DNA of 24,000 nt, taken from NCBI GenBank assembly GCA_050014795.1, contig JBEKCQ010000055.1:1-24000 (forward strand), in the 5' to 3' direction. The notes beneath the pieces are model-generated. The model did not search any database. It was given only the letters and a program-made list of their open reading frames with translations, and was not told the DNA's origin. The position numbers and the translations under genes were made by a program. Of the stretch, positions 8,494 through 23,122 are shown piece after piece. Source of the stretch: Terriglobia bacterium. GTDB taxonomy: Bacteria; Acidobacteriota; Terriglobia; UBA7540. The stretch's first letter is position 1. Each line of letters begins with the position of its first letter.

Positions 8494-8571
8494 AGGCCCG
8501 TAGCTCAGCCCGGTTAGAGCGCTACCTTGACACGGTAGAGGTCTGGGGTTCGAGTCCCCACGGGCCTACCA
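8494..8571 (+). tRNA. tRNA-Val (anticodon GAC), CCA encoded
   Basis: Hand-folded cloverleaf: acceptor AGGCCCG/CGGGCCT, D stem GCTC/GAGC, anticodon stem CTACC/GGTAG. The anticodon loop is TTGACAC, the T stem is TGGGG/CCCCA with TTCGAGT loop, discriminator A, then CCA. Confidence 0.9.
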
Positions 8572-8588
8572 TACGGCGTTTCAGCCCA

Positions 8589-8610
8589 TGTAGCGGAAAA
8601 TGTAGCGGGT
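8589..8610 (+). repeat. 22-nt motif TGTAGCGG-AAAA-TGTAGCGGGT, copy 1 (18 nt after the tRNA end)
   Basis: An internal tandem of TGTAGCGG with 12-nt period. It matches 17747-17768 at 18 of 22 positions, differing only in the 4-nt spacer. Confidence 0.5.
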
Positions 8611-8813
8611 ACCTGTGTTGATTGGCTTTGACTGGTTTGGGTTGGCCACGCGCAGATTCGTCACAAGAGCAAAGCTGATCGTAAGATTATATGTACTCGC
8701 CATTTATGGTTGTGTAGAATTCAGTTTAGCTGGAGACGCGGATTGTCATATAACATTCGGGACCCGGAGTAGCCGTGGCAGAGTTCTTGGCGTGCCTTCG
8801 GACGAGGCGGTGC

Positions 8814-9263
8814 ATGGGCGAGCGGCAACGGTCTCGACGTGGGAAGCGAACCGAAGCACAGATCAGCTTCAACATGTCTCGGGTGCGGAGCAGCGGGTCC
8901 AGGATCGAGCGGATGTTGGAGGAGGCTCTCCGGAAGGCTGGCGTCAGACCGAAGAAACAGGCTGCAATTGTTGGGCGACCAGACTTTGTTTTCCGTGCGG
9001 CGCGCGTGGCTGTGTTTTGCGACAGTCACTTCTGGCACGGGTACAAATGGAAAGAAAGGAAGCATGAGATAAAAAGCAATCGCAAATTCTGGTTAGAAAA
9101 GATCCAGCACAATATCAAACGGGATCGATATGTCAACCGCACGTTGAGAAGAGCAGGATGGCTGGTCGTTCGCTTCTGGCAACATCAGATCCTGCATTCG
9201 CCCAGCAAGTGCGCGGCCAAAGTCAAGCAGGTTGTTACAGCTCGAAGGACCGGACTAATTTAG
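8814..9263 (+). CDS. vsr: very-short-patch repair endonuclease (Vsr, T:G mismatch)
   Basis: RSKNMSR-like ISFNMSRVRSSGSRIE, GRPDFVF, AVFCDSHFWHG, NRKFWLEKIQHNIKRDR and GWLVVRFWQH all match Vsr family blocks. The start at ATG 8814 follows GAGG. Confidence 0.85.
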   Translation: MGERQRSRRGKRTEAQISFNMSRVRSSGSRIERMLEEALRKAGVRPKKQAAIVGRPDFVFRAARVAVFCDSHFWHGYKWKERKHEIKSNRKFWLEKIQHNIKRDRYVNRTLRRAGWLVVRFWQHQILHSPSKCAAKVKQVVTARRTGLI

Positions 9264-9265
9264 AA

Positions 9266-10357
9266 ATGGCAATCGTTGCGCTTGACCTTTTTTGCGGTTG
9301 CGGTGGGGTGACCTACGGACTTGCAAGAGCTGGAATCAAGGTCGCCTTGGGTATAGACATCGACGAGCGCTGCAGGTTTACCTTCAGACTGAACAACCCT
9401 GGGACAAACTTCCTTGTGGCTGACATCCGCGATGTTTCGGCACAGACATTACTGAAACACGTCCCCCATCTTACCGAAAGTGACTTCTTGCTGATCGCAG
9501 CATGCGCTCCTTGCCAGCCTTTCTCCTCTCAAAACAGGTCCAAGAACAAGACGTCAGGTCGTGCGATCCTGAACGAAGTAGAAAGAATAGTGCGAGAGTT
9601 GCGTCCCGAGTTCTTGTTTCTTGAAAATGTAACAGGAATACAAAAGGTTCCCGGCTTCAGTGCATTTCATCGCCTGTTGCGAGCTTTACATAACCTCAAG
9701 TACAAAGTGGAGTTTCGCAGTATTGACGCACTCTGGTATGGAATCCCGCAGAGGCGAAAGCGCCTGGTCCTCCTGGCCTCTGTTTACGGAAAGATTCCTT
9801 GGCCTGAGCAGACTCACGGTTTTGGTCCTGGGCTGCAAACGCCGGTCACGGTTCGTGAAGCGATAGCGCACTACCCGCCTTTGCAGGCGGGTGAGGCACA
9901 TCCAACAGTGCCTAACCATATCGCAGCCCGTTTGAGCCCACGCAATCTGGAGAGGATTCGCGCCACGGCTTGTGACGGCGGTAGCCGTAGCGAGTGGCCT
10001 AGACGCTTAGCTTTGTCCTGTCACGATACGCACGATGGTCACGAAGACGTGTACGGGCGGCTCCGCTGGGATGCTCTCGCGCCAACCCTCACAACCAAAT
10101 GCACAAGCATTTCCAATGGAAGATTCGGTCATCCAGACCAAGATCGCGCAATTTCTGCGCGGGAGGCTGCAGCTTTGCAGGGTTTCGACGATCGATTCGT
10201 TTTTTATGGGGGACTGCGTCAGATATCCGTTCAGATAGGAAATTCCGTTCCACCTGTTCTCGCCGAAAGATTCGGGAATGCATTCAAAGCCGAGGCTGAG
10301 GCGCTGAACGCGAACAAGAAGAGAATGAAATGGGCCTTACTCCTGGCTGGCCGATGA
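9266..10357 (+). CDS. dcm: DNA (cytosine-5)-methyltransferase
   Basis: Motif I DLFCGCGG, motif IV APCQPFS (catalytic Cys), motif VI ENV, motif VIII QRRKRL, motif X GNSVPP. The ATG lies 2 nt after the vsr stop. Confidence 0.9.
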   Translation: MAIVALDLFCGCGGVTYGLARAGIKVALGIDIDERCRFTFRLNNPGTNFLVADIRDVSAQTLLKHVPHLTESDFLLIAACAPCQPFSSQNRSKNKTSGRAILNEVERIVRELRPEFLFLENVTGIQKVPGFSAFHRLLRALHNLKYKVEFRSIDALWYGIPQRRKRLVLLASVYGKIPWPEQTHGFGPGLQTPVTVREAIAHYPPLQAGEAHPTVPNHIAARLSPRNLERIRATACDGGSRSEWPRRLALSCHDTHDGHEDVYGRLRWDALAPTLTTKCTSISNGRFGHPDQDRAISAREAAALQGFDDRFVFYGGLRQISVQIGNSVPPVLAERFGNAFKAEAEALNANKKRMKWALLLAGR

Positions 10358-10380
10358 GTTGACTAGGCAGATGAGGATAC

Positions 10381-12171
10381 CTACAAAAGGTACTGGCCTA
10401 GGTGTTCCAGAGCGTTATCGTGAACAGCCTTGATGACTTCATTTATTTTGTTTTCTACTGAATCAAAGGTCAGAGCCATCCCCTTCTTCTCCATAGCATG
10501 TAAGGCTTCCATAATTATAATGTCAACAAATCGCTGAAAGTGATACTCGCGCCATCTGGGCGATTCGGCTCCGTGCTGCCTATAGATTGCTGCAGCAAGT
10601 GGTCTGGAAGTGTTGATCCAATAGATTCCTGCGCCAACGTCTTGTGGCCGCTGGTAAACCGGGTTATGACGCGAACTCAGATCGACAGTTTGGGTGATTC
10701 CGAGAGGGTCGGGACTGTAGCTTGAAAGAAGGACTACGGGATGCCGCGTTCCTTTCTTTGGCTGGTCGCCCGCCCCTCCGCCTTTTGCGGCACCTTCACC
10801 ACCAGTGCCCCCTTTCGTTCTTGAGGAAGGACTTGTTCCACCCCCCGATCCGTCGATGCCCGTTCCCCCCGAACCAGATCCGGGTTCGGGCCCACCGAGC
10901 ACTTGAGTTAAGAGTCTATCCATAAACTGATTCTTCCAAGTGTTCAGGATTTTGTTAAATTCGTCTGTCAGCCTCAGGTTCTGAAGCGTCCGCTCTTTTG
11001 CTTCTTCCTTTTCAATCTTCTTCCCGACCTCATCAACTTGCTCTGCGATCCACCTTAAAAGCGCCCGCGTTCTGCGGTTATCTATCAGTTTTTCTCGGTC
11101 GTTCTTGACAGAATCTTCTTTTGGATCCTCAAGAATAGGGCAGAAGCATTCACCAAAAATGAACTCAGCCTGCGCGTACTGTTTGATATGCACGAGTTCT
11201 TGGATTCTATACGAGGCAATGACACCGATCTCCCCGAGGATGTCAATGCAGTTCAGTTCTGAAACGCGACTATTCCGCCCGAAAGGCTCCTTTGCAACCA
11301 TTAAGGAAAGATCGCCGGCATGGAACTTCTTGCTTGCGAACTCGATTTCCTCAACGTCCCCGTCTTCTTCGTACGGAAGGACCCGCGGAATCGGGATAGC
11401 CGGGAGGCTTTCAAATCCGGGACGGAGCTCGATTTGCTCACCCACGAGACGCTCCCAAACGAGCTCCCCGTTGTGCAACACTCTTATCGGTTTCCGTTGG
11501 ACGATCTTCCGAGCCTGCGGGTGCAACTTCATTTTCTCACAGAGTCGCGAAACCCGAATTGGACTCCGGACGCCGTCTGGCCGAATTCCACGGACGACCG
11601 TGAAACCAGTTCCTCCCGTCAAGATGCTATCTTTTGTCCTTTCTGGGAGGTCGAGCTCTCCTATCTCCGCCAGCGTCAGCGCTTCTCTTGGTGCGCAGGA
11701 CCTGTTTTGGAGCCCACGGGCGAATCCGTACCTCCTGTTCTCACTAAACCCAAACACATTCAGCATCCCGCCGCGATACGTAATGAAATAGGAGCGTTCA
11801 AACATTTGGCGCATATAGAACTTGCCACCGTTGCCGTGCCCGCCGTAGGTTCGTTTCTTGAGGCCGCGCGAAGCAGCCTTCGGGTCCCCCCAACGTTTCA
11901 AAGCCTTGTCTATATCGTCTGCAGTCATCCCGCAAAAGTCGATACACTCGAAGCTTGCAGGCTCAGTGTGTCCGGCATCCGTGAAGTTCAGCACAATGTG
12001 CTGTTGGTCATCGGGGATCGCCGGTTCCTCCCGGATGTAGGCATCGACCGAGTTCTTTATCCACTCGGGTAGGCCTTTTTCGTGGTTGAACTTGAACTCA
12101 TTTCCGATGATATCCAGAAGGTGATCGTCGATCACATTAGGCTGTTCGATTATGGAGACTTTAAGTGCCAC
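10381..12171 (-). CDS. GHKL (HATPase_c_3 / MORC-like) ATPase with Gly-rich linker and uncharacterised C-terminal domain
   Basis: Bergerat-fold motifs: N-box EWIKNSVDA, G1-like IDFCGMT, G2 YGGHGNGGKFY. A roughly 50-aa Gly/Ser/Thr linker (GGPEPGSGSGGTGIDGSGGGTSPSS...GGGAGD) precedes a roughly 115-aa C-terminal domain. The GTG start follows GAGGAGGAAA and overlaps the upstream gene by 11 nt. Confidence 0.75.
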   Translation of the reverse strand: MALKVSIIEQPNVIDDHLLDIIGNEFKFNHEKGLPEWIKNSVDAYIREEPAIPDDQQHIVLNFTDAGHTEPASFECIDFCGMTADDIDKALKRWGDPKAASRGLKKRTYGGHGNGGKFYMRQMFERSYFITYRGGMLNVFGFSENRRYGFARGLQNRSCAPREALTLAEIGELDLPERTKDSILTGGTGFTVVRGIRPDGVRSPIRVSRLCEKMKLHPQARKIVQRKPIRVLHNGELVWERLVGEQIELRPGFESLPAIPIPRVLPYEEDGDVEEIEFASKKFHAGDLSLMVAKEPFGRNSRVSELNCIDILGEIGVIASYRIQELVHIKQYAQAEFIFGECFCPILEDPKEDSVKNDREKLIDNRRTRALLRWIAEQVDEVGKKIEKEEAKERTLQNLRLTDEFNKILNTWKNQFMDRLLTQVLGGPEPGSGSGGTGIDGSGGGTSPSSRTKGGTGGEGAAKGGGAGDQPKKGTRHPVVLLSSYSPDPLGITQTVDLSSRHNPVYQRPQDVGAGIYWINTSRPLAAAIYRQHGAESPRWREYHFQRFVDIIIMEALHAMEKKGMALTFDSVENKINEVIKAVHDNALEHLGQYLL

Positions 12172-12811
12172 GAGTTTCCTCCTCGTTGCCCGATCTTGCA
12201 GATGACGTCTTCAGCCTAATCATATCTGCAAACCTCTCCACCATAAACTGATGAAACCGAGCAACAGCGACTAAGGAAAGGTCATCGGGGTTCGCATCCG
12301 ATATCTCATCCAGTGCGGATTTCACTGTTTCCAAACGCCCAATGAAATCGTTCCTCGTGGTGCGAACGCTAACACCCAGGTACTCGAACAAGTCTGAATC
12401 AATGATCTCGTCTTGCTTATTCGCGAGAAACAATTTGAAGCCCTCGAGGTGCTTTATCCTTTCTAGTTCTATCTGGGCGCCGCGTTCGATTCGGTGGCCC
12501 AGACGGGCCGAAGGGGGGCGACCCCCCTCAATAGCCTGAAGTCTTTGTACTTCTGCTAAACCGTGGGATGTCAGGGAGAACATCTTGTTCGAGGCCGAAA
12601 CCATCCCCTTTTTTCGATAATCGTAAAGGGGCTTGTGAACAATATCTCCTGAGTCTGGAAACTCAGGATGTCCTTTCAAGTGGAAGTCGCTAGCGTAGTC
12701 CCTGAACGCTTGTACGACTATATCCTCGTATCGAACCTTCCGGCGCCCCCCGTCAGAAAGGCGGTACAGACTGAGCAAAACCTTTTGCGCCATCGACAAC
12801 TGAGAGCTCAC
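12161..12811 (-). CDS. hypothetical protein (216 aa), possible N-terminal winged-helix; operon partner of the GHKL ATPase
   Basis: GTG start with an upstream GGAGGAGG/GGAAG. The N-terminus MAQKVLLSLYRLSDGGRRKVRYEDIVVQAF looks wHTH-like. There is no catalytic motif I can name. The 11-nt overlap with the GHKL gene implies co-translation. Confidence 0.6.
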   Translation of the reverse strand: MSSQLSMAQKVLLSLYRLSDGGRRKVRYEDIVVQAFRDYASDFHLKGHPEFPDSGDIVHKPLYDYRKKGMVSASNKMFSLTSHGLAEVQRLQAIEGGRPPSARLGHRIERGAQIELERIKHLEGFKLFLANKQDEIIDSDLFEYLGVSVRTTRNDFIGRLETVKSALDEISDANPDDLSLVAVARFHQFMVERFADMIRLKTSSARSGNEEETRGT

Positions 12812-12972
12812 GGCCGTTCTTCCGCCTCCTCCGACTCTGAGATATGTCCTCTTGTGCGCGAAACCAATCTTAACATATGCTCATGTCGCTGGAGAGGAAA
12901 GGCGCAGCCTCGATAGCAGCTCTCTTCCCCCCGTTTTCAAGCACGAAGAGCCTGATTGCGAAGGGCATTTGT

Positions 12973-14628
12973 ATGAATGATATTCCGGACCTTCCGGCGC
13001 ACTTGTCCCAGCGGCTAATCGGGGAACTCGACCTTTCCACACGGGCTTATAACGCTCTGAGCAAACACGGCGTGCGCACAATCAGCGATCTTGTCAAATT
13101 AAGCGACGAGGAAATGCTGCGCCTACCCTGGTTTGGTACGAAATGCCTGAATGAGGTGCACCAACTAACTCAGTCGCTCCTGCTGAGCTCAGCAAGGGAT
13201 CATGCAACTCCCAAGGAAGGCTTTGACCTTGCCGAATTAGCGCAATCGCATCCGAAAGACGCGTCCACATCCCTGCCGACGGATTATAGTCTGAGTGAGT
13301 GGGCGGTCCCAACACCGGCCAAGGGAGACTTGGATACGCCGATTGAACGCCTGCATTTGTCGCCTCGGGCGGCGAAAGTGCTTGGCTACCTTGGGATCAA
13401 GACGATTCGACAATTGCTTCGTTGCCCCAAGAATGCACTGCGCAAACAACCGAACTTTGGGCGTGTAAGCTTGTATGAGTTGGAGCGCAAAGTCTTCGAC
13501 AGCCTTGAGGGAAGTCACCAGCACGACTTCTCTCTAGGGACCAAGGCATTCACGGCAAGACTGCTTGCCTGCCTCCCCGAGCGCCAACAGAGGGTGATCG
13601 CAGATAGATACGGGCTGTGGGACGGTATTGCGGAGACACTGCAGGACATCGGAGACAAGTTGGGTCTGACGCGTGAGCGTATACGTCAAATAGAAGATAA
13701 GAGCCTTCGTCGAATTCGTGGTCGATTTGGTCTCCACATTGTAGTCGCATTTCTGCGCGCGACGTTCAGCGAGGCGCTCTCCCATCGACTTAGCGGGTGC
13801 GCTGGAATCCTAAGCGAAGACGAAGCCATGCAGGGCATGGCGAATGATTGCACCCTCGAAGAGGCGGCGCTGGCAGTTGCCTTTATGCGGGACATATGCC
13901 CGACCGAGGATGACATATTCGGGCTCTGTCTACGCAAAGTGGGGGACGGCGTCTATTGCGTAGAGCCAGAAACGGCCGAACGCTATGAGAAGGTACTCGG
14001 ATTGATCGAGAGCGGACTCGAAGGGCGTGGGGGGCCAGTAGCGGAAGGGAAACTCTGTGACGAAGTGCTGGAACGAACAAGGGCCTCTGAGCATCTTGAC
14101 TGGAGGCCGCTTATCCAGCGAGTTCTCGCCGTCTCGCCCTCTTTAACTCGCCTACGAAATGGAACTGTATGTCTCTCTGGGTGGACTGAGGTTCGCGGTC
14201 GCGATTACCCCAGTCTGGCAGTAACAGCGCTCGTCGCCCTGGGCCGTCCCGCTCACTACAAGGAGATTTGGGAGAAGGCCATGGCGCTCTATCCGCGACT
14301 AGGTGAGCTTAGTATACATGCGATTCATAACCGCCTGACTTCCAGATCGGACAAGTTCGTGTGGGTCGGGAAAGGAACTTATGGACTGAAAGCATGGGGA
14401 CTCAAAAGACCTCCGTATATAAAGGACAAACTAACGGAGCTGCTTTCGGAGGCCAAGTACCCGCTCCCTTATTGGCATCTCAAGGTCAAGGTGCTGGAGG
14501 TGTGCAACTGTAAGGAGGAATCGGTGCGCATGACGTTGGACCTGAATCCCCGCATTTTCAGGAAATTCGCAGACGACCAATATGGTCTTCGCGAGCACTA
14601 CGAGCGAAGGACCCATCGCCAAGGCTAG
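12973..14628 (+). CDS. multi-HTH protein: 2x RNA polymerase alpha-CTD-like (HhH) + sigma-70 region 4 + C-terminal HARE-HTH-like domain
   Basis: Module 1 LDLSTRAYNALSKHGVRTISDLVKLSDEEMLRLPWFGTKCLNEV and module 2 LHLSPRAAKVLGYLGIKTIRQLLRCPKNALRKQPNFGRVSLYEL resemble RpoA-CTD. LPERQQRVIADRYGLWDGIAETLQDIGDKLGLTRERIRQIEDKSLRRIR is a textbook sigma-70 region 4. The C-terminal ALGRPAHYKEIWEKAMALYPRLGELSIHAIHNRLTSRSDKFVWVGKGTYGLKAWG resembles HARE-HTH / RpoE-delta N-domain. The start is ATG 12973 (MNDIPD); the track alternative is 12877. Confidence 0.7.
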   Translation: MNDIPDLPAHLSQRLIGELDLSTRAYNALSKHGVRTISDLVKLSDEEMLRLPWFGTKCLNEVHQLTQSLLLSSARDHATPKEGFDLAELAQSHPKDASTSLPTDYSLSEWAVPTPAKGDLDTPIERLHLSPRAAKVLGYLGIKTIRQLLRCPKNALRKQPNFGRVSLYELERKVFDSLEGSHQHDFSLGTKAFTARLLACLPERQQRVIADRYGLWDGIAETLQDIGDKLGLTRERIRQIEDKSLRRIRGRFGLHIVVAFLRATFSEALSHRLSGCAGILSEDEAMQGMANDCTLEEAALAVAFMRDICPTEDDIFGLCLRKVGDGVYCVEPETAERYEKVLGLIESGLEGRGGPVAEGKLCDEVLERTRASEHLDWRPLIQRVLAVSPSLTRLRNGTVCLSGWTEVRGRDYPSLAVTALVALGRPAHYKEIWEKAMALYPRLGELSIHAIHNRLTSRSDKFVWVGKGTYGLKAWGLKRPPYIKDKLTELLSEAKYPLPYWHLKVKVLEVCNCKEESVRMTLDLNPRIFRKFADDQYGLREHYERRTHRQG

Positions 14629-14813
14629 GCTCGTCTGTTTCTGCAAGCGCACAATCGCATTGAGGGTATGACCTGCAATCGAGCTCATATTCAAGCACTC
14701 ACGCGCAGGGTTCGCCTCGCGCCCCTCCCTGCTGAGCAAAAGCTTGAAGTACCGCAATGATAGACGTAATCTTACGGAAACTCGCGACCCAGATAGCTGC
14801 AAAGGAGAGGAGG

Positions 14814-15611
14814 ATGGGCCACCAAATGCTACTTAATCGTGACGAAATCATGAGCAATGAGGTCATCCGGAATGGCGCCGAGAGTGCCTATCGCGCTGCA
14901 AGCTACGACCTGCGAGTCGGAAGAATCCTCACAACCTCTGGGGAGGAAAAGACGACCTTCATAATTCCGCCTCAAGGCATGGTTGACGTAATCTCACAGG
15001 AGAGGGTCATTTTGAAAGGGAGCATCGCCGGGTATGCTACGGTGAAAACGAGCTTGTGCCGGAATGGCATCCTCGCGATAAACATCGGGATTATTGACCC
15101 CGGTTATGAAGGGCTCATCTCCAGCACCCTCATAAACTTCAGCAAATGCCCATTCGCTCTCAGAGCCGGCGACCCTTTCCTTCGACTCACATTCCATCAG
15201 TACACTGCGCCCCGAACCCTTCCGGCTGCTCCATCCAAGGGGGATGAGGAATACGTTCAAGAACGAAAGAAGATGGTGCAAGAACGATTCTCTGCCACGT
15301 TTCTGGATGTCCCTCAGACGATTGAAAACTTGACCCCACCCTTAATCAAAAGGGTTCTAGATGATTGGAAGAGTGCTCTTTACAAGTGGGCACCGCTTTT
15401 TGCCTTCGTTATTGCTCTGCTCGCCTTTCTTGTGAACGTTGGTGCCACTCGCTTCGGGCAGCCCAAGGTGTCGAAGGAGCAATTAAAGGCAGAGGTGGTT
15501 GCCGAAATTCGCGATGAGAACCACAGGATTTTTGAAGAACGCCTGCAGCAAGTGGAGCGGCAGACTCAGCAATTACTTACTGAGAGGGAGCATCAGAAAA
15601 AGGTACAGTGA
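14814..15611 (+). CDS. dCTP deaminase/dUTPase-fold (Dcd-like) protein with C-terminal TM helix and coiled coil
   Basis: ASYDLRVG, VKTSLCRNG and IGIIDPGYEG...ALRAGDPFLRLTF align without effort to E. coli Dcd blocks (ATVDVRLG, GRSSLARLG, RIDPGWSG...ALRPGMLIGALSF). A hydrophobic helix WAPLFAFVIALLAFLVNVGA (nt 15387-15446) is followed by a charged heptad-like tail. The ATG 14814 is preceded by AAGGAGAGGAGG. Confidence 0.75.
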   Translation: MGHQMLLNRDEIMSNEVIRNGAESAYRAASYDLRVGRILTTSGEEKTTFIIPPQGMVDVISQERVILKGSIAGYATVKTSLCRNGILAINIGIIDPGYEGLISSTLINFSKCPFALRAGDPFLRLTFHQYTAPRTLPAAPSKGDEEYVQERKKMVQERFSATFLDVPQTIENLTPPLIKRVLDDWKSALYKWAPLFAFVIALLAFLVNVGATRFGQPKVSKEQLKAEVVAEIRDENHRIFEERLQQVERQTQQLLTEREHQKKVQ

Positions 15612-15637
15612 TAGAATAGTACGGAAAGGAAGTGTAG

Positions 15638-16630
15638 GTGGACAGCTTCGATTCCGTCGACGAGATTCAAAAGTGGGTTCTGGAATCATTGCTGGCACGG
15701 GGTGGCTCAACTCGGCCACGTGGTTCGGCCACACTTGAACTATTCCCAGTCTCGTTCATGCTTCGACATCCACGAATGAGATGTGTTACGAACCCGGCGA
15801 GACGATGGATTTTGCCATTGGCCCTGGGGGAATTTTGCTGGCACCTCTCCGGCTCAAATGATGTTCACTTCATCGAATATTACTCCAAACGCTGGAGAGA
15901 ATTCGCAGAGAGCGGTTCCTCGACCATCTGTGGCAGCTCTTATGGTCATAAGATATTTTCCCGAAGCGCCGGTGAACCCAGTCAATGGGACCGGCTTGTC
16001 GAGCTACTGCGAGTCGACCAACAATCGAGGCGTGCAGTGCTTGGTCTCTTCGACCCGGCTCGTGGCCTCAATCAAGATGAGAGAGATGTTGCCTGCGCCT
16101 GCTCCTTGCAGCTCATGATTCGGTCTGGTCGGCTCTTAGCCTTTGTCTACATGCGGAGCAATGATGCCATCTGGGGTCTGCCTTACGACATTTTCTTTTT
16201 CACTATGCTCCAGGAGTTGCTTGCCTGCGAGCTTGGCTTAGAACTTGGCTATTATTATCACTTCGCGGCTTCGCTTCACCTCTACGAACGTCACTTTGAA
16301 CTTGCCCACCGAATCGTTGAGACCGAGCCAGGTTCGCACTTTGAAATGCCACCGATGAGTGTGCACAAACAGGTTGACGATTTTCTGCGATTGGAGGCCG
16401 TACTCAGGTCCAGGCACGAGCTGTTACCCCGGCAGGTCGGAACGCTACATCCCTACTGGCGTGATTTGCTGGCCGTACTCGAGTGGTATAGTCAGGCAAA
16501 GGGTGCCGGGGGTTATCAAGCGGTGGCTGAGAAGGTTCCTACACCGTCCCCATATGGTCTGCTGTTGAGAAATATGTTGCCCAAAGCAGAGGCGGGAACG
16601 CGTGCCTATGCGGCGGATTATTCAGATTGA
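15638..16630 (+). CDS. thymidylate synthase (ThyA) family enzyme, predicted deoxycytidylate-specific (hydroxymethylase or methylase type)
   Basis: Gap-free block YMRSNDAIWGLPYDIFFFTMLQELLACELGLELGYYYHFAASLHLYERH against E. coli ThyA [50 protein letters not shown]. Also a catalytic Cys block VACACSLQLMI, SRRAV (phosphate-binding Arg pair) and LGEFCWHL (Glu). The GTG start follows GGAAAGGAAG. There is a roughly 90-aa C-terminal extension. Confidence 0.8.
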   Translation: MDSFDSVDEIQKWVLESLLARGGSTRPRGSATLELFPVSFMLRHPRMRCVTNPARRWILPLALGEFCWHLSGSNDVHFIEYYSKRWREFAESGSSTICGSSYGHKIFSRSAGEPSQWDRLVELLRVDQQSRRAVLGLFDPARGLNQDERDVACACSLQLMIRSGRLLAFVYMRSNDAIWGLPYDIFFFTMLQELLACELGLELGYYYHFAASLHLYERHFELAHRIVETEPGSHFEMPPMSVHKQVDDFLRLEAVLRSRHELLPRQVGTLHPYWRDLLAVLEWYSQAKGAGGYQAVAEKVPTPSPYGLLLRNMLPKAEAGTRAYAADYSD

Positions 16631-17099
16631 GGCTCACGCAAAGTTCCTGCAAATAGCTAAGCGCGTGAGTTTAGGGTCGAACTGTGTGCGTGGCCAAGTT
16701 GGAGTCGTGCTTGTCCAGGGGGGCAAGATTGTTTCGACGGGCTGGAACGGGGTGCCGACATCATTTCGCGATTGCCTTTCCGCAGGCTGTCCGCGATGCA
16801 AGCACCGGACTTCCACGGGAAGAGGGTATGACCGGTGTATCTGCGTCCACGCTGAACAGAGCGCCATTGCTACGGCTGCCCGCAACGGAATTCCTCTGAG
16901 GAGTGCAACAATGTATGTGAATCTCCGCCCTTGCCTTGGGTGCCTGAATCTGGCACTCACAGCCGGTGTTCGGAAAATCGTCTATGAAGTATCATGGACA
17001 TATCCAAGCAACATAGAGGCAGCCTATGAGAGGATTGCCAAAAGGCTGTCGTCTTTCCTTCGCGTCGATTCTCGTCGGAATAAGGCTGGAATTCGATGA
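16602..17099 (+). CDS. dCMP deaminase (ComEB / deoxycytidylate deaminase family, zinc-dependent)
   Basis: CVHAEQSAI (HAE) and RPCLGC (PCxxC) zinc motifs, plus an upstream Cys cluster CLSAGCPRCKH typical of dCMP deaminases. It is a single 165-aa domain. The start (GTG 16602 or ATG 16608) overlaps the 3' end of the ThyA-like gene. Confidence 0.85.
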   Translation: MPMRRIIQIEAHAKFLQIAKRVSLGSNCVRGQVGVVLVQGGKIVSTGWNGVPTSFRDCLSAGCPRCKHRTSTGRGYDRCICVHAEQSAIATAARNGIPLRSATMYVNLRPCLGCLNLALTAGVRKIVYEVSWTYPSNIEAAYERIAKRLSSFLRVDSRRNKAGIR

Positions 17100-17230
17100 T
17101 TGCAGCCGTCCGGTGAACCCACCTTCCGCGTTAAGAATTACACCTGATAGTTTCCCGGAGACGTGCATGACATGCGGCTTGTGCGCTGAGCGCCCACGTC
17201 ATGGTGGTCGGTTCGGTTGCCCTTCTGGTC

Positions 17231-17527
17231 TCAATTCGTTAGATGGCTGCCTACATCGGCGTTCTGTGCGAAGGCCTGCTTGTGGTGAAATGCCCGCCTG
17301 AATGCTTCGAGCTTCCGGATTGCGTCCCGCCGGTACTCGTCGATGACCTTGGCGTACGTCTGCAAGATGCCAGCAGATGAGTGCCCCATCATTTGAGCCA
17401 CGAAGAGATCCGGCGTCCCTGAAGCACTCAGCCTGCTGGCCACTGTGGCTTGGAGGTTGTGGCTAGCGTTGATGCCGCCCCTACTGGCGGCCGTCGCCCA
17501 TCTTACTGTGACTGGGACGACGTGTAG
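17231..17527 (-). pseudogene. tyrosine recombinase 3' remnant (C-terminal ~98 codons only)
   Basis: The reverse strand reads ...INASHNLQATVASRLSASGTPDLFVAQMMGHSSAGILQTYAKVIDEY.... This is a degenerate HxLRHT box (SHNLQAT) followed by the GHSS...Y catalytic-Tyr box. An in-frame stop at 17528-17530 bounds the frame, and no N-terminal two-thirds exists before the next gene. Confidence 0.65.
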
Positions 17528-17686
17528 TCAGGGGCACATTAGGTGCCGGCATCGGCTAGCGGCTTCGATGGCTTCCCTCTTAACTCAAAGCAACAAAAGG
17601 TGTTATGCGCCAACCAAGGGCGGGCGCTACCCTGCCTAGGTAGCGGGCAGCGCTTTTCCCCGGTGTTGCGGCCCAAACCTAACCCT

Positions 17687-18811
17687 TTATTGTACAACAA
17701 GTTGCGGCCTTCTTTCCTGCCCGCCAATTCCAGATTGGAGGGCAGTTGTAGCGGCTTTTGTAGCGGGTTCAGCCACTTTCCCAGGTGCCAGAATCAGTTC
17801 TACGGCCTTTCTTTTCAATTCGTTAGCGGGGTGCATGTAGCGGCGTGTCATCACAATTGACGCGTGCCCCGCCAGTTCTTGAATCACTGCCAGCGGCACA
17901 CCGGCGTCACTGAGACGCGAGCAAAAGGTGTGGCGCAGCTGGTGAAAAGTGATATGCGGAATTTCGGCAATCTTAACCGCCCGGCAGAAGGAATGTTTGA
18001 TATCTCCAACATGCTCCTTGGAGTTCTTTGGTGAAGGGAACACCCACTCGCCCTCGACCTCTTCGCGCCACTGTTGCAGCGTTGCGCGCAGCACCGCGTT
18101 CACGTACATCACCCGCCCTTGGCCTGCCCTGGTCTTCGACTTCCGCACGATCAGAATGCCGTTGTCCAGGTCGATGTCGGCCCAGCGTAGTCGAAGGATT
18201 TCGCCGCGCCGGAGGCCCGTATACACGGCCACCAAGATAATCGGCTTCAGGTGCGGTGCGAGGAAATGCAGTTCCGGGTGGTCACAGGCCTGCAGGAGCT
18301 TCGCCTCTTCCTCATACGAAAGGACGCGCTCGACTGGCGGTCCGTCCAGCTTGAATAGTTTGGCGTCACGGGCGCCGTTGGTTTCGACCAACTCCCACTT
18401 CACCGCCGTGCTCAGCATGCTTTTGACCAGGCCGACCTCACGGTTGATTGAAGATTTCTTCAAGCCCGCGTCCAGGCGCTTCTGCTTGAATTTCTCCACG
18501 GTGTAAGCTGAGATTTCATTCAACCTGTACCGCCCGAGGAACGGAACCAAGGCACGCGGGACGTAGTACCTTTCTACCGTGAAGGCCGGTTTGTTGGCTT
18601 CGCTGTATTTCAGGTAGCGAGCGGCAAAGTCAGAAAACTTCGGATTCTCCTTCTTCGCCAGGCCGTGTTTCCCAAGGGCCAGCTGGGCCTTGTGAACCGA
18701 CTCAATCCTGAGTGCCATCTTGCGGCTTGTCAGTTTCGTTGGCCGCTGGATATGCTGGCCTTCGAACCAGAAGTGGTACCACCAGACTCCCCCGCGCTTG
18801 TAGATGCTCAT
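17687..18811 (-). CDS. int: site-specific tyrosine integrase
   Basis: MSIYKRGGVWWYHFWFEGQ N-terminus, Arg box GLRRGEILRLRW, HQLRHTFCSRL, and LAGHASIVMTRRYMH (catalytic Tyr). The ATG 18811 is preceded by GAGGGAGAAG. Confidence 0.9.
   Translation of the reverse strand: MSIYKRGGVWWYHFWFEGQHIQRPTKLTSRKMALRIESVHKAQLALGKHGLAKKENPKFSDFAARYLKYSEANKPAFTVERYYVPRALVPFLGRYRLNEISAYTVEKFKQKRLDAGLKKSSINREVGLVKSMLSTAVKWELVETNGARDAKLFKLDGPPVERVLSYEEEAKLLQACDHPELHFLAPHLKPIILVAVYTGLRRGEILRLRWADIDLDNGILIVRKSKTRAGQGRVMYVNAVLRATLQQWREEVEGEWVFPSPKNSKEHVGDIKHSFCRAVKIAEIPHITFHQLRHTFCSRLSDAGVPLAVIQELAGHASIVMTRRYMHPANELKRKAVELILAPGKVAEPATKAATTALQSGIGGQERRPQLVVQ
17747..17768 (+). repeat. 22-nt motif TGTAGCGG-CTTT-TGTAGCGGGT, copy 2 (inside the integrase 3' coding end)
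   Basis: Matches 8589-8610 at 18 of 22 positions. On the reverse strand it encodes PATKAATT, about 20 codons before the int stop. Confidence 0.5.
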
Positions 18812-18995
18812 TTTCTTCTCCCTCAACGGGCTGACGATGCTGATCGACGAATTCCTCCAGGTCACTTTCGCGGAATCGCACCAGGCGGCCAATCTTGCGG
18901 TGGGAAATCCGCCTCTGGGCGACCCAGAGGTAGAGCGTTTGCGGTTTCACCCCCAGCTTGGCGGCGGCTTCTGCAATGGTTAGAAGCTTTTCCAT
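18702..18995 (-). CDS. xis: excisionase / HTH_17 (MerR-like) DNA-binding protein
   Basis: MEKLLTIAEAAAKLGVKPQTLYLWVAQRRISHRKIGRLVRFRESDLEEFV is a typical excisionase-family HTH. The ATG 18995 is preceded by GGGGGTGGG. The reading frame continues 110 nt past the int start. Confidence 0.75.
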   Translation of the reverse strand: MEKLLTIAEAAAKLGVKPQTLYLWVAQRRISHRKIGRLVRFRESDLEEFVDQHRQPVEGEENEHLQARGSLVVPLLVRRPAYPAANETDKPQDGTQD

Positions 18996-19250
18996 TGCCC
19001 ACCCCCAAGGGTTCTGCGCCCCACACGCCCCTGGGCAAAGCCCCCTAGCACCCCGCCAGGGGCAACACCCGGCCCGCCAGCACCCCCCGGCAGGGGTTGG
19101 CTTGGCCCCAGAATCAGCGGCGCCGTGGGCCGCATTTGGCCGCCAAGGCCCCTGCAAGCCGTGGGCTGCTGCCCCCGCAGCCACAGCAACGGGAAACTGC
19201 CCCAGCGGGTCTGCAAGCGGCATTTTCGGGCATTCGGCTTGGGCCATATA

Positions 19251-19295
19251 CCACTGCTAAATATAGCACATTTTGTGCTGTTTATAAAGCAGTGG
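19251..19295. promoter_or_regulatory. imperfect 45-nt palindrome upstream of the xis-int leader
   Basis: CCACTGCT (19251-19258) pairs with AGCAGTGG (19288-19295). There is an inner AGCAC/GTGCT pair around TTTT. It sits at the sharp boundary between a G/C-rich leader and an AT-rich spacer. Confidence 0.35.
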
Positions 19296-19529
19296 ATAGC
19301 AGTTTCTTTACTAGTATGACATTTTGACCCTTCGGTCATTTTGCCCGTTTGAATAACCACCAATGAATCCCCGAATCCGTTTATGATTTTCCCCTTTAGG
19401 GATTTGCGTTCCAATCGACACCTCCTCTGCCTCAGCTGTTGGTCAAACTACCTGTTGCTCTAGCAGCCTGACCACAGGCTATGGGCATCGTAGGCGAGCG
19501 GTTTTGCAGGGTACAGGCAATGAATGGGG

Positions 19530-20447
19530 CTAATTCTTGAAGGTGACTTGGGAGCGGGCTTTTCGGGCTCGTCTAATCCCCTTCTCAATCGTGTTGTATT
19601 CATGGCGTCGCTCCAAGGCGAGGAGCGCCGTAGCGAGGTGTTTGGGTTGCCAGGTCTCTGGCTTTTCCCACGATGCAGCCACGTCCTGCCTGCCGTAAAG
19701 AATCTCAGCGAACGCTTCACCTCCGAGTATGTATGACCCTCCCCGCATTCGGGACACCTGCTTCCACAATCTCTCTCGAACGCTTTTTAGCACTCCGGCC
19801 TTGGTGACGGCTTTGGACTTCTCTTGTTCAATCGCAGCTCTGACGACATTGTGAAGGTTTAGGCATTCGGCGACCAGAACCTTGAACCTTCTCATCAGCC
19901 ACTTGTCTTCCTCGCTTCCCCTGCGCCGCCCTTTGGGTCGCTTAGGGGAAGCCTTCCATCCTTCAAATATTTCCACGAACTCCTCATCGAATTTAGGGTG
20001 ATGAAACTGGTCGCAGTAAAGAACCTGGAGCACGTTTTTCCAAGTCTGCGCGTAGGCAGCGTATCCGACCGTTACCAGTTGGGACCAAATGGTGTCTTCA
20101 CCGGCAGCCGGGACCTCCCACAAAGCTTCTTGAAACATGTCTGCCAGGTTTATCCCGAGGCCAGATGGAAGGGCCTTGTTCGTCTTAGCGATCTGCGGTG
20201 GAGGCGCTGGGAATGTCATCACGATTTGCACGACACGATGTCTATCGCGCAATGAGAGCTGCGGGGGCGGACATTCGCTCACAAGCCAATTGCGGAGTTC
20301 GGCCTCTATCGAGCGTGGAAACCTCATCGGTACTCCTAGGTCCTTGCGCCACGCTTGCTGCATTTCGGCGTCTGGACCACGCCACTTTTTGCCCCGAGGT
20401 TCTTTCTCCTGCTCGTGATTGGCCTTTGAATCTAGTGGCTCTGCCAT
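19530..20447 (-). CDS. hypothetical protein (305 aa)
   Basis: Long ORF with ordinary amino-acid composition, on the same strand as xis-int and divergent from the primase gene. I recognise no motif. Confidence 0.6.
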   Translation of the reverse strand: MAEPLDSKANHEQEKEPRGKKWRGPDAEMQQAWRKDLGVPMRFPRSIEAELRNWLVSECPPPQLSLRDRHRVVQIVMTFPAPPPQIAKTNKALPSGLGINLADMFQEALWEVPAAGEDTIWSQLVTVGYAAYAQTWKNVLQVLYCDQFHHPKFDEEFVEIFEGWKASPKRPKGRRRGSEEDKWLMRRFKVLVAECLNLHNVVRAAIEQEKSKAVTKAGVLKSVRERLWKQVSRMRGGSYILGGEAFAEILYGRQDVAASWEKPETWQPKHLATALLALERRHEYNTIEKGIRRARKARSQVTFKN

Positions 20448-20746
20448 GACGAATCCCCCTCCACAAGATGTGCTGTTTGGAGTCTACACGAGACGAGAAC
20501 GATTCGGCACTGCTCCCTGCTAGGTGCGAAATGCAGGGCATGTTTTGACCCCATTACGTGAATTCACGCCTTTCCCCCCCTCTGATATTCCTCCTCATGG
20601 CAAGAACATTTCTCGAGTAGGCGAGACAGTTCTTCGGCCGAAAGTAAATTGAATTGGAAGCGGCGCCAGGCAGCGCCGGCAGTTTTTCCCACCTCCTGGG
20701 TTCTGCCACGCTGCCTGGCGTCGGCCAAAAAACTCAGGAGGGGTTC

Positions 20747-23122
20747 ATGCGTAGACCAACTTCAACGGAAGTGGCAGCTTTCCGCTCGCTCTTTGTGGCT
20801 CGACCTGACGCCTATGTCCTGTGGCGGGCCGGAAATCCCGTGGCCGTACACCGCCCACTGGACAAGCAGGTCTTGGAGGGTCATTTAGCGGGCGATGGCC
20901 GGGTGGGCACGTATCTGCTTCTGCGAGGAAACCTGACGCCGTTCCTGGTTTTCGATCTCGATGAGCCGAACAAAAGTCTGGTGCTGAAGATACGGAAGCG
21001 CCTCAAGCGACATCGCATACCCGCATATGTTGAGCGGTCGAAATCCAAGGGTTTCCACATCTGGGTATTCTTCGAAAAACCGCTTCACGCGAAATTGGCG
21101 CGCCGGTTCGCGAGCGCCTTGATCGCTGACCTAGGCAACACGAAAATCGAGATTTTCCCAAAACAGGATTGCGTTCCGAAGGAAGGGCTGGGCAATTGCA
21201 TTTGGCTGCCGTTGCATTCGCCGGACGTTGTCAGACGGCGCACAGTCTTTCTCGACAGCAACTTCCATTCGATTCCCGATCAATGGGGCTTCCTGGCTGA
21301 AGTGCGGCGCGTGGGGGAAAGGCGAGTCCGGCGGGCTTTGGAAACAATGGCGCTGGAGGCGCCAGCGAACAGCAGCCCAGCTTCCAATCAGATCCAGCGG
21401 TTTCCCAGAACGAAGCAGTTCCCGCGACTCCGGAATCATGCGCCCAAACTGGCTCCTTGTGCTCAGGCGATACTGCTGCAAGGGGCTGACGAGGGCAATC
21501 GAAATGTGGCCCTGTTTACACTCGCGAAACATCTGCGGGGCGCCAGCTTAGACCAAGCCGCCGCCGGAGAGTTGGTACGCGCTGCCAACATGAACTGCCG
21601 CCCTCCCTTGTCGGAGCAAGAGGTCCGGGGCATCATTCAATCAGTTTTCGCCAAAGGCTACACATCACTCGGCTGTGACAAGCCGTTCATCGCCTCCCTG
21701 TGCAGTGACCAGTGTCCCGTGAAAAGAGCCAATGAGAAAAGGGTTGGGACGTCTGCAATTCGGATTCTCGACCAGGCCGAAGCTCGGCCGCGTATTCATC
21801 CTTCGCAGGCTTATGTGGACGGGAAGTTGTGGTACGGCTTGAACGCCGGGAGAGAGGAGGTGTGGGTAAACAGCGACAGGCAGGCCAATTCAATGGAAGA
21901 AATGCTCGATAGGTTCACCTTGGAGAGAAAGCCCACCAAGATGAGGTGGAGCACGGCCGGCGTCAAGAGGTTCCTGCGGGAAAGCGGGTCCGTCAGCCCA
22001 GCTGAACTCTTCTTGAAGATACGCGGCTTGCTGGAGGATCACATTCGCTTTCGGTCCCGCTGGCAGCCCACACTAGTTGCCCTGTGGACGATGGGGACAT
22101 ACGTCCATCAGGCCTTTGCGTATTATGGCTACCTCTGGCTAACATCGCCGGGACGCCGTTCGGGCAAATCTCTACTGCTGGAGATCATTTCTTGCCTTGC
22201 CTATAACGCGACGCCGGTGATGACAGACCCCTCCGAGGCTTCGCTTTACCGGGATACCGCAGCCAACTCTAGCACGCAGGTCCTGGACGAGGTCGAATCG
22301 CTCCGGCGGGCCGATCAGGAGAAGCACTCTGGTTTGATGGCCATGCTCAACTGCGGGTTCAAGGCAGGCGCAAAAGTACCCCGGTTTGACATCAGTACAA
22401 ATCGCGTGGAGGACCTCGACGCCTACTGCCCTCGAGCGTTAGCCGGAATTAGTCGCCTGCATCCAGTCCTAGCTGATCGGTGTTTTAAGATATTCCTGAA
22501 GCGCAAGAGGCCGGACGACAAGGTCAAACGCTTTTCCGAGAGAAGATTGGCTTCAAAGCTCCAGGGGATGCGTGACGACCTGCATGTGTTTGGTCTGCTC
22601 TATGCACCCCCCGTTGGGGAACGCTACGACGAATCTGATTCTCTAGTCTTGCCACCCGAAGTCGATGACCGTGCGCGGGATATATTGGAACCGCTGTTCG
22701 CCATTGCCTGGGTCGTCGACAATGCAGGTCCTGAGCTGGCTATAGCGGAGGTTCTGACGGTAGCCGCCAGGGCTATTGCGCGGGATCGCGCAAGTGATGA
22801 AGGCGAAGATGAAGAGATAACTGCGGCGCTGGAGATCCTGGTGCAGGACTATCCCGAAGGCAAAGACAAGTGGATTCTGAGATCCGACAGGGCGGTAGGA
22901 ATTTTCAAGAGTCATGAGTCGCTGGAATGGATGGAGTACCCTCGACAGGCTGCGAACCTATTGCGCCGCCTGGGCTTCAGGTCAGCACCGCACCGAATCG
23001 GGCGAAAGGTAACACGCGGCTACCAAATCCGCAGGCATGTCTTGATCGACATGTGCAAGTGCTATGGCGTGAACTTGGCTAATTCTCAAAATGAGGCGTT
23101 ACCGGCGTTACAGGCGCGGTAG
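20747..23122 (+). CDS. replication protein: archaeo-eukaryotic primase (prim-pol) domain + PriCT-like + DUF3631-like P-loop C-terminal domain
   Basis: AEP motifs LVFDLDEP (DxD), SKGFHIWVFF (sxH) and EIFPKQD. PriCT-like NRNVALFTLAKHL...SEQEVRGIIQSV. C-terminal SPGRRSGKSLLLE (P-loop-like) and QVLDEVESL (Walker B-like). The ATG 20747 is preceded by AGGAGG. Confidence 0.85.
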   Translation: MRRPTSTEVAAFRSLFVARPDAYVLWRAGNPVAVHRPLDKQVLEGHLAGDGRVGTYLLLRGNLTPFLVFDLDEPNKSLVLKIRKRLKRHRIPAYVERSKSKGFHIWVFFEKPLHAKLARRFASALIADLGNTKIEIFPKQDCVPKEGLGNCIWLPLHSPDVVRRRTVFLDSNFHSIPDQWGFLAEVRRVGERRVRRALETMALEAPANSSPASNQIQRFPRTKQFPRLRNHAPKLAPCAQAILLQGADEGNRNVALFTLAKHLRGASLDQAAAGELVRAANMNCRPPLSEQEVRGIIQSVFAKGYTSLGCDKPFIASLCSDQCPVKRANEKRVGTSAIRILDQAEARPRIHPSQAYVDGKLWYGLNAGREEVWVNSDRQANSMEEMLDRFTLERKPTKMRWSTAGVKRFLRESGSVSPAELFLKIRGLLEDHIRFRSRWQPTLVALWTMGTYVHQAFAYYGYLWLTSPGRRSGKSLLLEIISCLAYNATPVMTDPSEASLYRDTAANSSTQVLDEVESLRRADQEKHSGLMAMLNCGFKAGAKVPRFDISTNRVEDLDAYCPRALAGISRLHPVLADRCFKIFLKRKRPDDKVKRFSERRLASKLQGMRDDLHVFGLLYAPPVGERYDESDSLVLPPEVDDRARDILEPLFAIAWVVDNAGPELAIAEVLTVAARAIARDRASDEGEDEEITAALEILVQDYPEGKDKWILRSDRAVGIFKSHESLEWMEYPRQAANLLRRLGFRSAPHRIGRKVTRGYQIRRHVLIDMCKCYGVNLANSQNEALPALQAR

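Follow-up and report, generated by a model that had tools for sequence, protein, structure and literature searches.

The 24,000-nt stretch of contig JBEKCQ010000055.1 from a Terriglobia bacterium, which is called the window below, encodes a 265-aa protein that joins a nucleotide-binding fold to a predicted membrane helix and a charged tail. The protein, here named DcdL, belongs to the dUTPase superfamily, in the clade of the deoxycytidine triphosphate (dCTP) deaminase Dcd. Its gene is followed by a gene for a thymidylate synthase (TS)-like protein and a gene for a protein of the deoxycytidine monophosphate (dCMP) deaminase family. By its gene neighborhoods, this module accompanies C5-methyltransferase/Vsr restriction cassettes as an accessory and is carried on integrative and conjugative elements. 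We tentatively read DcdL as a trimeric deoxynucleoside triphosphate (dNTP) pyrophosphatase, held at the inner membrane and possibly gated by it, which would feed a deoxycytidylate-converting module of 5-methylcytosine (5mC) restriction systems and drain or corrupt the dCTP pool. This is the preferred reading, with a chance of being correct that we place somewhat below even. The enzymes come from known families; the architecture of DcdL and the restriction-linked arrangement of three enzymes appear to be undescribed.

Fold, active site and membrane helix of DcdL

The DcdL gene is preceded by a Shine-Dalgarno sequence (Table 1), and the same 265-aa gene is called in a public metagenome assembly carrying the same DNA. 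The motifs ASYDLRVG, KTSLCRNG and IIDPGYEG and the strand GLISSTLINFSK, all quoted in the original prediction, are present in the translation. The N-terminal half matches the Pfam DCD family (PF22769) with 47.2 bits against a cut-off of 27 (E = 3e-12). Other models are not reached: the score is 59.4 bits for the NCBIfam dCTP deaminase equivalog TIGR02274 (cut-off 92.8), 20.8 bits for the dUTPase family PF00692, just under its cut-off of 22, and 21.4 bits for the dut model TIGR00576, far under its cut-off of 102.6. The AlphaFold2 (AF2) model of a single chain, made with 87 homologues, has a pLDDT of 91.8 and shows a beta core at residues 1-129 and helices at residues 144-158, 166-214 and 221-264. 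The structure-based search with Foldseek against the PDB placed dUTPases (8y1w and 9ln0/9ln3) at the top, with E-values of ~1e-10 and TM-scores of 0.8 on the target, followed by Dcd:dUTPases and E. coli Dcd; the probability for the matches to Dcd structures was 1.00. A sequence search of solved structures ranks the matches in the same order (best E ~1e-13). The Pfam score and the structural matches thus confirm the Dcd fold.

The first homologue search yielded 91 homologues. Relatives from two database searches were then pooled and aligned, and the 223 sequences of this alignment are the basis of the family counts below. Among 1.84 billion representative proteins, the family was found in 119 clusters at E < 1e-30 and in 457 clusters at E < 1e-10; the number of clusters at 50% identity is at least 119. 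The matches listed are mostly 250-290 aa long, usually span the arm and the membrane segment, and often reach the tail. The named sources are Acidobacteriota (Sulfotelmatobacter, Bryobacterales, and Blastocatellia), Polyangiaceae and Cyclobacteriaceae, and plasmid pSymA of Sinorhizobium meliloti carries a member that is 30% identical. The family is widespread in soil bacteria. On one short metagenomic contig (L025, 488-1238), the DcdL homologue matches in three pieces in different frames, which suggests a pseudogene or sequencing errors.

The catalytic residue of Dcd is not conserved in DcdL. In the HMMER alignment, Glu138 of E. coli Dcd (VLEFYN) corresponds to Thr105 of DcdL (SSTLIN), and Thr, Phe or Ala occupies this position across the family. 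None of the 223 relatives has Glu or Asp at the aligned positions 100-109. The strand behind the DPG motif had been described in the original prediction as free of acidic residues; this is correct for the window protein and holds for all relatives, with no correctly placed catalytic Glu or Asp at the Dcd Glu site. Other acidic residues were considered as substitutes for Glu138 and rejected. The invariant Glu63 is the generic Glu of the "TLE" sequence of Dcd and archaeal dUTPases, and only roughly half of the family has an acidic residue at position 99. Because the Glu is absent family-wide, DcdL is not a Dcd-type deaminase. Judged by its sequence, it cannot deaminate dCTP.

The catalytic residue of dUTPases, on the other hand, has a counterpart in DcdL. 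The Asp that coordinates the attacking water is D90 in E. coli Dut and D83 in M. tuberculosis Dut, and the D83N mutant of the latter shows normal substrate binding and practically no activity (PMC5519681). By its motif, this residue is the first Asp of the I-D-x-D-Y motif and is equivalent to Asp95 of DcdL, which lies in the sequence G-I-I-D-P-G-Y-E-G and is kept in 222 of the 223 relatives. The original prediction had looked at the second Asp of IDSDY, which is missing from DcdL, as the dUTPase base, and this was the wrong residue. The nearest solved structures, which are deposited as dUTPases, are also devoid of the Dcd Glu; thus, its loss excludes deamination and not catalysis. Since Asp95 is retained, the pyrophosphatase activity on dNTPs is the likeliest activity predicted for DcdL. 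Between the options of the original prediction, Asp95 and the archaeal dUTPases without the Glu favor the hydrolase with a different base, and the sensor or scaffold is less favored.

Further positions besides Asp95 are near-invariant. Gly92 is present in all 223 sequences, Asn108 in 222, Glu63 in 221, Arg124 in 219 and Phe109 in 218; position 78 is Lys or Arg in 218 sequences, and position 98 is Tyr, Trp or Phe in all of them. Such a pattern is that of a nucleotide site which functions and is kept by selection. The Ser and Arg of the Dcd site are not among these positions, and their retention, as originally proposed, does not extend to the family. The position of Dcd Ser111 is Thr79 in the window protein and Thr or Asn across the family. 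The position of Dcd Arg115 is Arg83 in the window protein, but only 24 of the 223 relatives have Arg there; 106 have Asn and 32 have Asp.

The hydrophobic helix of 20 residues noticed originally was substantiated. The predicted transmembrane helix WAPLFAFVIALLAFLVNVGA has a mean Kyte-Doolittle hydropathy of 2.3 over 19 residues, and a comparable segment is found in 211 of the 223 relatives. The 12 sequences without it do not exceed 212 aa in length and probably represent fragments. Neither the membrane helix nor the tail was found in any solved Dcd or dUTPase structure matched to DcdL. The tail is helical in the AF2 model, as expected from the original description of a charged heptad-like tail, but the heptad signal itself is less clear: hydrophobic residues account for 46% of the a/d positions and for 16% elsewhere in 201 tails, which is only modestly above shuffled tails. 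Some DcdL homologues are automatically labeled "cell division protein FtsB" at JGI, because in both proteins a membrane helix is followed by a coiled coil.

DcdL lacks a signal peptide, and its single hydrophobic helix comes after ~190 aa of folded domain. In 87 aligned members, the flanks of the helix contain on average 3.1 Lys and Arg residues on the N-terminal side and 1.6 on the C-terminal side. Because of this positive-inside bias, the simplest prediction is the N-in topology, with the catalytic domain in the cytoplasm and the tail (54-90 aa; ~55 aa in DcdL) outside. Trimers of the dUTPase fold close their active sites with the C-terminal arm, which in canonical dUTPases covers the site of a neighboring subunit (PMC5519681). 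The arm of DcdL is conserved (Tyr147 in 193, Phe163 in 216 and Leu164 in 201 of the 223 sequences) and runs straight into the membrane helix; thus, the region of the membrane helix and the tail could control the closure of the lid. We infer from the model that lid closure in DcdL may be governed in this way.

Downstream enzymes and gene neighborhoods

The TS-like gene starts 27 nt 3' of the DcdL gene. The best sequence match of its product in the PDB is the CMP 5-hydroxymethylase MilA (E = 6e-44), ahead of thymidylate synthases (E = 1e-17). The window protein and 20 homologues adjoining DcdL genes were aligned to E. coli ThyA. All 21 sequences keep Glu58, Trp80, Tyr94, Arg126/127, the nucleophile Cys146, Arg166, Ser167, Asp169, His207 and Tyr209. 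All 21 also have Asp at the positions of both Leu143 and Asn177 (L143D and N177D). In the TS family, Asp177 indicates a cytosine substrate, and an acidic residue at 143 indicates a hydroxymethyl rather than a methyl product (PMC5175136, PMC13326640). Arg126 together with Ser167 indicates a 2'-deoxy substrate, while Lys133 and Ala176 of MilA favor ribo-CMP (PMC5175136). Retention of Asp169 distinguishes these proteins from 5-hydroxycytosine synthases, which are D169N (PMC13326640). From this signature of residues, the TS-like protein is predicted to be a dCMP 5-hydroxymethylase. A 5-hydroxycytosine synthase was ruled out by the retained Asp169, and a ribo-CMP enzyme like MilA was ruled out by Arg and Ser at the positions of MilA Lys133 and Ala176.

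The start of the third gene overlaps the end of the TS-like gene. The best solved match of its product is T4 dCMP deaminase (1vq2), and the zinc motifs HAE and PCxxC are present. The protein also shares the Cys/His-rich insert that caps the active site in the mononucleotide-specific clade of dCMP deaminases (PMC3239186). This capping insert makes it unlikely that the protein is a DNA deaminase acting with Dcm and Vsr.

In total, 38 DcdL loci from genome, metagenome and plasmid collections were examined. The TS-like gene is directly downstream of DcdL in 24 of the 28 distinct loci having downstream DNA, and in some of them (L032 and L036) the stop and start codons of the two genes overlap. At least 14 loci contain the dCMP deaminase. 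Within a few kb of DcdL, at least 12 distinct loci encode a C5 DNA methyltransferase, and at least 6 encode Vsr. The restriction partners are of at least five types: HNH (L001, L002, and L018), MvaI/BcnI, HATPase_c_3-Z1-DUF4420 (L029 and partly L024), a PD-(D/E)xK helicase of 1395 aa (L038), and an unknown type, represented by the gene pair in the window. In L036, MvaI/BcnI, a controller protein and DcdL form one tight operon. S. meliloti pSymA has DcdL, the deaminase, Vsr and Dcm without a TS-like gene. Further neighbors are CBASS genes, an OLD-family ATPase, integrases, Rep and primase genes, and type IV secretion genes. A CBASS-like pair of a CD-NTase and a patatin phospholipase (L018, 1722-4275, +) is directly upstream of the cluster of deaminase, DcdL, TS-like, Vsr, HNH and Dcm genes, which places the module in a defense island.

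Nucleotide kinases beside the module were searched for in 15 neighborhoods. None was found, except a full-length homologue of the 5-hydroxymethyldeoxyuridine (5-hmdU) DNA kinase (PF18723, E = 3e-103), which follows the DcdL and TS-like genes in L031 (8913-9881, +). This homologue adjoins chromosomal dnaN and dnaA (9994-12773, -) and looks cellular, not viral. This may be a sign of pyrimidine hypermodification at the level of DNA in a bacterium.

Phage genomes do not appear to be the source of DcdL. No membrane-anchored DcdL was found in a pattern scan of IMG/VR, which reaches close relatives only, and a tblastn search against deposited phages gave only soluble Dcd-like proteins of ~160 aa with 25-37% identity, such as RcZahn gp88. 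A phage origin was rejected on these results.

Several loci deviate from the common arrangement. In L003 (5269-8191) and L027 (4814-9188), a haloacid dehalogenase (HAD) hydrolase gene is directly 5' of DcdL and a gene for an FAD-dependent tryptophan-halogenase-like enzyme is directly 3'. A radical SAM gene is nearby, and these two loci contain no TS-like gene, deaminase or methyltransferase. The DcdL copy in L035 is solitary. In L001, two proteins are encoded 3' of the trio (8315-10607, -): one belongs to DUF7002, and the other, of 536 aa, fuses a P-loop kinase-like domain (AAA_33) to an adenylosuccinate synthetase-like domain. The fusion could be another nucleotide-directed conflict gene.

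In the window, the GC content falls from ~0.62 to ~0.52 at roughly position 9000, beside a tRNA-Val gene (Table 1). A repeat of the 3' end of this tRNA, as expected for an attachment site, was not found within the window, and therefore the far boundary of the island lies beyond it (within the window, the island covers 8494-24000). An imperfect direct repeat of 32 nt with 78% identity (17231-17262 and 17815-17846, spacing 584 nt) has one copy between the deaminase and integrase genes and the other inside the 3' part of the integrase open reading frame (ORF).

The 596-aa and 216-aa genes beside Vsr and Dcm have no match in Pfam, NCBIfam or PADLOC. The 596-aa protein has an N-terminal EWIKNSVDAY sequence, which resembles the N-box of GHKL proteins without significance (E = 0.078), and a long Gly-rich linker. 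An assignment to HATPase_c_3 was rejected, as the BLASTP matches are non-significant (E = 0.078-0.7), and the resemblance is a motif-level hint only. The pair is likely a candidate restriction component. The gene for the 583-aa protein stands between the restriction genes and DcdL, directly upstream of the latter, and its product shows partial matches to segments of the BREX kinase PglW and MzaA. A small protein with sigma-70 region 4 is also encoded after the trio in L034.

Table 1. Positions of the genes and protein features in the window
Feature	Position	Strand	Basis
tRNA-Val(GAC), left edge of the lower-GC island	8494..8571	+	ARAGORN
Vsr very-short-patch-repair endonuclease	8814..9263	+	Pfam Vsr (gene as called in L004)
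C5 cytosine DNA methyltransferase, Dcm type	9266..10357	+	TIGR00675 E 4e-39; PADLOC type II methyltransferase E 6e-78; Pfam DNA_methylase
Overlapping gene pair (596 aa and 216 aa) beside Vsr-Dcm	10381..12811	-	Adjoins the methyltransferase gene
583-aa protein: two domains like the RNA polymerase alpha-CTD, sigma-70 region 4, weak match to HARE-HTH	12877..14628	+	Pfam
Shine-Dalgarno AAGGAG of DcdL	14802..14807	+	6 nt 5' of the ATG at 14814, read from the sequence
DcdL, 265-aa membrane-anchored Dcd/dUTPase-fold protein	14814..15611	+	ORF, translation, homologues
DcdL, Dcd/dUTPase-fold beta core, residues 1-134	14814..15215	+	AF2 model, Foldseek
DcdL, codon of Asp95 (IIDPGYEG), which corresponds to the catalytic Asp of dUTPases	15096..15098	+	Motif G-I/L-I-D-x-x-Y-x-G
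DcdL, Thr105 codon, position of E. coli Dcd catalytic Glu138	15126..15128	+	HMMER alignment to E. coli Dcd 2j4h
DcdL, C-terminal arm and linker helices, leading without a break into the membrane helix	15243..15386	+	AF2 helices 144-158, 166-214
DcdL, predicted transmembrane helix, residues 192-211	15387..15446	+	Kyte-Doolittle
DcdL, charged heptad-like helical tail, residues 219-265	15468..15608	+	AF2 helix 221-264
TS-like protein, dCMP 5-hydroxymethylase signature (MilA/T4 gp42-like)	15638..16630	+	PF00303 E 1e-25
dCMP deaminase-family protein	16608..17099	+	PF00383 E 4.5e-19; start overlaps the TS-like gene end
Tyrosine integrase of the island	17687..18892	-	PF00589 E 5e-35
AEP-TOTE/PriCT_1/DUF3631 primase-like gene	20654..23122	+	

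Possible functions of the module

In the preferred reading, Asp95 of DcdL would activate a water molecule, and dCTP and/or deoxyuridine triphosphate (dUTP), or C5-modified dCTP, would be cleaved to the monophosphate and pyrophosphate. The dCMP released by DcdL would be taken by the enzyme with the hydroxymethylase signature and by the overlapping dCMP deaminase. The net flow would then run from dCTP to 5-hydroxymethyl-dCMP (5hm-dCMP) and to deoxyuridine monophosphate (dUMP) or 5hm-dUMP. The membrane helix and the tail would hold DcdL off until a trigger arrives. The module would thereby act against phages as a second line of defense, with the dCTP pool collapsing or being corrupted. As nucleotide kinase genes are missing from its vicinity, the monophosphates made by the module would be a sink. 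A more elaborate version, which is quite unlikely, has a trimeric periplasmic coiled-coil "feeler" of about the length of Lpp that senses envelope perturbation by a phage or by incoming DNA. Through the membrane helix and the lid it would switch on the dCTP hydrolysis by DcdL; the hydroxymethylase and the deaminase would then convert dCMP irreversibly to 5hm-dCMP and 5hm-dUMP, starving or poisoning the replication of invaders that have passed restriction.

Several points weigh against the preferred reading. The motifs that accompany the catalytic Asp in proven dUTPases are altered: motif 2 is Lys-Thr/Asn in DcdL instead of Arg-Ser, the Arg of motif 4 is lost, and the Gln of motif 4 is replaced by the invariant Arg124. 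The Gly-rich motif V is absent from the DcdL sequence, and Dut without motif V is nearly inactive (PMC5519681). Where dUTPases have motif V, the arm of DcdL bears Tyr147 and an F-S-x-T-F-L segment that runs into the membrane helix. The topology and the gating of DcdL are predictions only. The shared operon in L036 suggests constitutive expression, which would be compatible with a harmless sanitizer and with a gated toxin alike. Simple depletion of dCTP does not account for the specific link to C5 methyltransferases. Neither DcdL nor the TS-like protein is covered by a model of PADLOC (no match at E = 0.01) or matched by a defense model of NCBIfam; the module was not assigned to any known defense system.

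The link to C5 methylation is best accounted for if DcdL is a sanitizer, which hydrolyzes 5-methyl- or 5-hydroxymethyl-dCTP or toxic analogues such as 5-aza-dCTP, with the deaminase turning the monophosphates into dTMP or 5hm-dUMP. Such an activity would stop cytosine-replacing phages from evading 5mC restriction, or would shield the carriers of C5 methyltransferases from side effects of 5mC turnover or from cytosine analogues. It is the sole reading that explains a C5 methyltransferase and Vsr as the constant neighbor across nuclease types. Phage enzymes of the dCMP-deaminase family that are selective for 5mC and 5-hydroxymethylcytosine (5hmC) nucleotides exist (bioRxiv 10.1101/2024.12.05.627091). 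The pSymA locus, with its DcdL, deaminase, Vsr and Dcm and no TS-like gene, is also in line with it, and co-transcription with restriction genes suits a constitutively active, harmless enzyme. However, the TS-like enzyme, present in 24 of the 28 loci with the signature of a forward dCMP hydroxymethylase, has no role here, and the conserved membrane anchor is left unexplained; the pool sanitizers Dut, MazG and DCTPP1 are soluble. The sanitizer is considered unlikely. A role for all three enzymes is found in a pre-replicative DNA modification of the T-even type, to which we give a similarly low probability. DcdL would clear dCTP and supply dCMP, the TS-like protein would make 5hm-dCMP, and kinases of the host would phosphorylate it to the triphosphate, so that 5hmC or 5-hydroxymethyluracil enters the DNA of the element or the host, for example as an anti-restriction measure during transfer. 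The trio matches three T4 activities and the co-localization of TS(N177D), deaminase and pyrophosphohydrolase genes in phages, the 5-hmdU DNA kinase homologue of L031 (PF18723) belongs to a class of enzymes acting on modified DNA, and many loci are on integrative or conjugative elements. Against this stand the lack of a deoxynucleoside monophosphate (dNMP) kinase, a glycosyltransferase or a dedicated polymerase in the examined loci, and the finding that modified dNMPs are incorporated well only with a co-expressed phage dNMP kinase (PMC13326640). The membrane-anchored form was also not found in IMG/VR or the deposited phage genomes, and a change at the level of the pool would alter the whole host chromosome as well.

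A further reading, the main idea of the original prediction, is a non-catalytic nucleotide sensor or membrane effector. The Dcd-like domain would bind a nucleotide, and the arm would relay the binding to the membrane helix and the coiled coil, resulting in signaling or membrane damage. Nucleotide-binding domains fused to membrane helices are an effector design of bacterial immunity, as in CBASS and Pycsar. The loss of the Dcd Glu, the divergence of the dUTPase motifs 2, 4 and 5, and the conservation of the membrane helix and tail in 211 of the 223 relatives point in the same direction. Asp95, on the contrary, is near-invariant, and the equivalent Asp of Dut is needed for catalysis and not for binding, as seen with D83N (PMC5519681). 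The tight operon coupling with two dCMP-using enzymes suggests a metabolic step, and one membrane helix per subunit makes a weak pore-former. A sensor or membrane effector of this kind is therefore very unlikely. It is hardly conceivable that DcdL is an ordinary dCTP deaminase or a housekeeping dUTPase with a buried hydrophobic segment. The score for PF22769 is above the threshold, and homologues are publicly labeled "deoxycytidine triphosphate deaminase" or "dUTPase". However, the catalytic Glu is absent from all 223 sequences, the scores are below the cut-offs of TIGR02274 and the dUTPase models, and essentially all full-length members have the 19-residue hydrophobic segment and the charged tail. 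The gene is on mobile islands beside restriction genes and not in core metabolism. An ordinary Dcd was rejected on the family-wide absence of the Glu and the score below the equivalog cut-off.

The significance of the module depends on which of these readings is correct. If the dCTP pool is depleted or corrupted, as preferred here, the module would represent nucleotide-depletion immunity in a new form, made up of several enzymes and equipped with its own membrane sensor. If modified dCTP is cleaned, the module would directly oppose the hypermodification of cytosine by phages. If 5hmC is made, it would be a case of pool-level DNA modification outside viruses. Chemistry that has mainly been known from T-even-type phages would then sit in bacterial mobile elements; the known bacterial exception is MilA in antibiotic biosynthesis.

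Comparison with known systems

DcdL resembles most the archaeal Dcd-like dUTPases, represented by P45 (9ln0/9ln3), which we take to be the enzyme of Pyrococcus furiosus, and by the dUTPases of Thermococcus pacificus (8y1w) and Sulfolobus tokodaii (2zdc). These enzymes share with DcdL the Asp of DPG(W/Y)xG and the absence of the Dcd Glu, which is Met in P45 (LTLMLYN) and Thr in DcdL. They differ from DcdL in being soluble proteins of ~155 aa with 27% identity and without the membrane helix, the coiled-coil tail or the link to restriction islands. Their motifs 2 and 4 are Arg-Ser-Ser and Arg...Gln, whereas those of DcdL are Lys-Thr-Ser and x...Arg124. E. coli Dcd and the Dcd:dUTPases of M. jannaschii, M. 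tuberculosis and B. halodurans share with DcdL the fold, PF22769, IDPG and the Glu63-type Glu of "TLE". In the DcdL family, Glu138 is replaced by Thr, Phe or Ala and Arg115 is not conserved; for DcdL, the score is below the TIGR02274 cut-off, and the protein is membrane-anchored. In the literature searched, no description was found of a membrane-anchored dUTPase-fold protein, the DcdL family or the cassette.

The closest solved relative of the TS-like protein is MilA of mildiomycin biosynthesis, and the alignment extends into its C-terminal extension, to residue 287 of 330. MilA has Asp at the positions of both L143 and N177, but Lys133 and Ala176 of MilA correspond to Arg and Ser in the window protein. 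No nucleoside-antibiotic genes were found near the TS-like gene in the window.

The pathway of T4 consists of gp56 (dCTPase/dUTPase), gp42 (dCMP hydroxymethylase) and Cd (dCMP deaminase). The same three steps are predicted side by side for the DcdL module; L143D and N177D are as in gp42 and MilA, and the deaminase is nearest to T4 Cd. The best phage match of the TS-like protein is only 31% identical. Unlike the T-even set, the module has no dNMP kinase or glucosyltransferase and is found in bacterial chromosomes and plasmids beside restriction genes. The dCTPases of phages are MazG-like, not Dcd-like or membrane-bound; those of RB69 and DLP3 match the dCTP pyrophosphatase 7mu5. In metaviromes, TS(N177D), a deaminase and a pyrophosphohydrolase of the PRA-PH type co-localize in phages (bioRxiv 10.1101/2024.12.05.627091).

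The anti-phage dCTP deaminases, namely the kinase-domain dCTP deaminase of Tal et al. and AvcD, would act in a similar way, as dCTP would be removed through dephosphorylation and deamination to dUMP. The deaminase of the window matches the PADLOC dCTPase model (E = 2.5e-22) and the NCBIfam model for anti-phage dCTP deaminase (E = 6e-18), with a match that covers only the deaminase domain (432-485 of 630) and reaches 65 bits against a cut-off of 400. The anti-phage dCTP deaminases are single polypeptides with an N-terminal kinase/NTPase-like domain. The DcdL module, in contrast, has a separate Dcd-fold membrane protein for the removal of phosphate, and includes a hydroxymethylase-like enzyme in addition.

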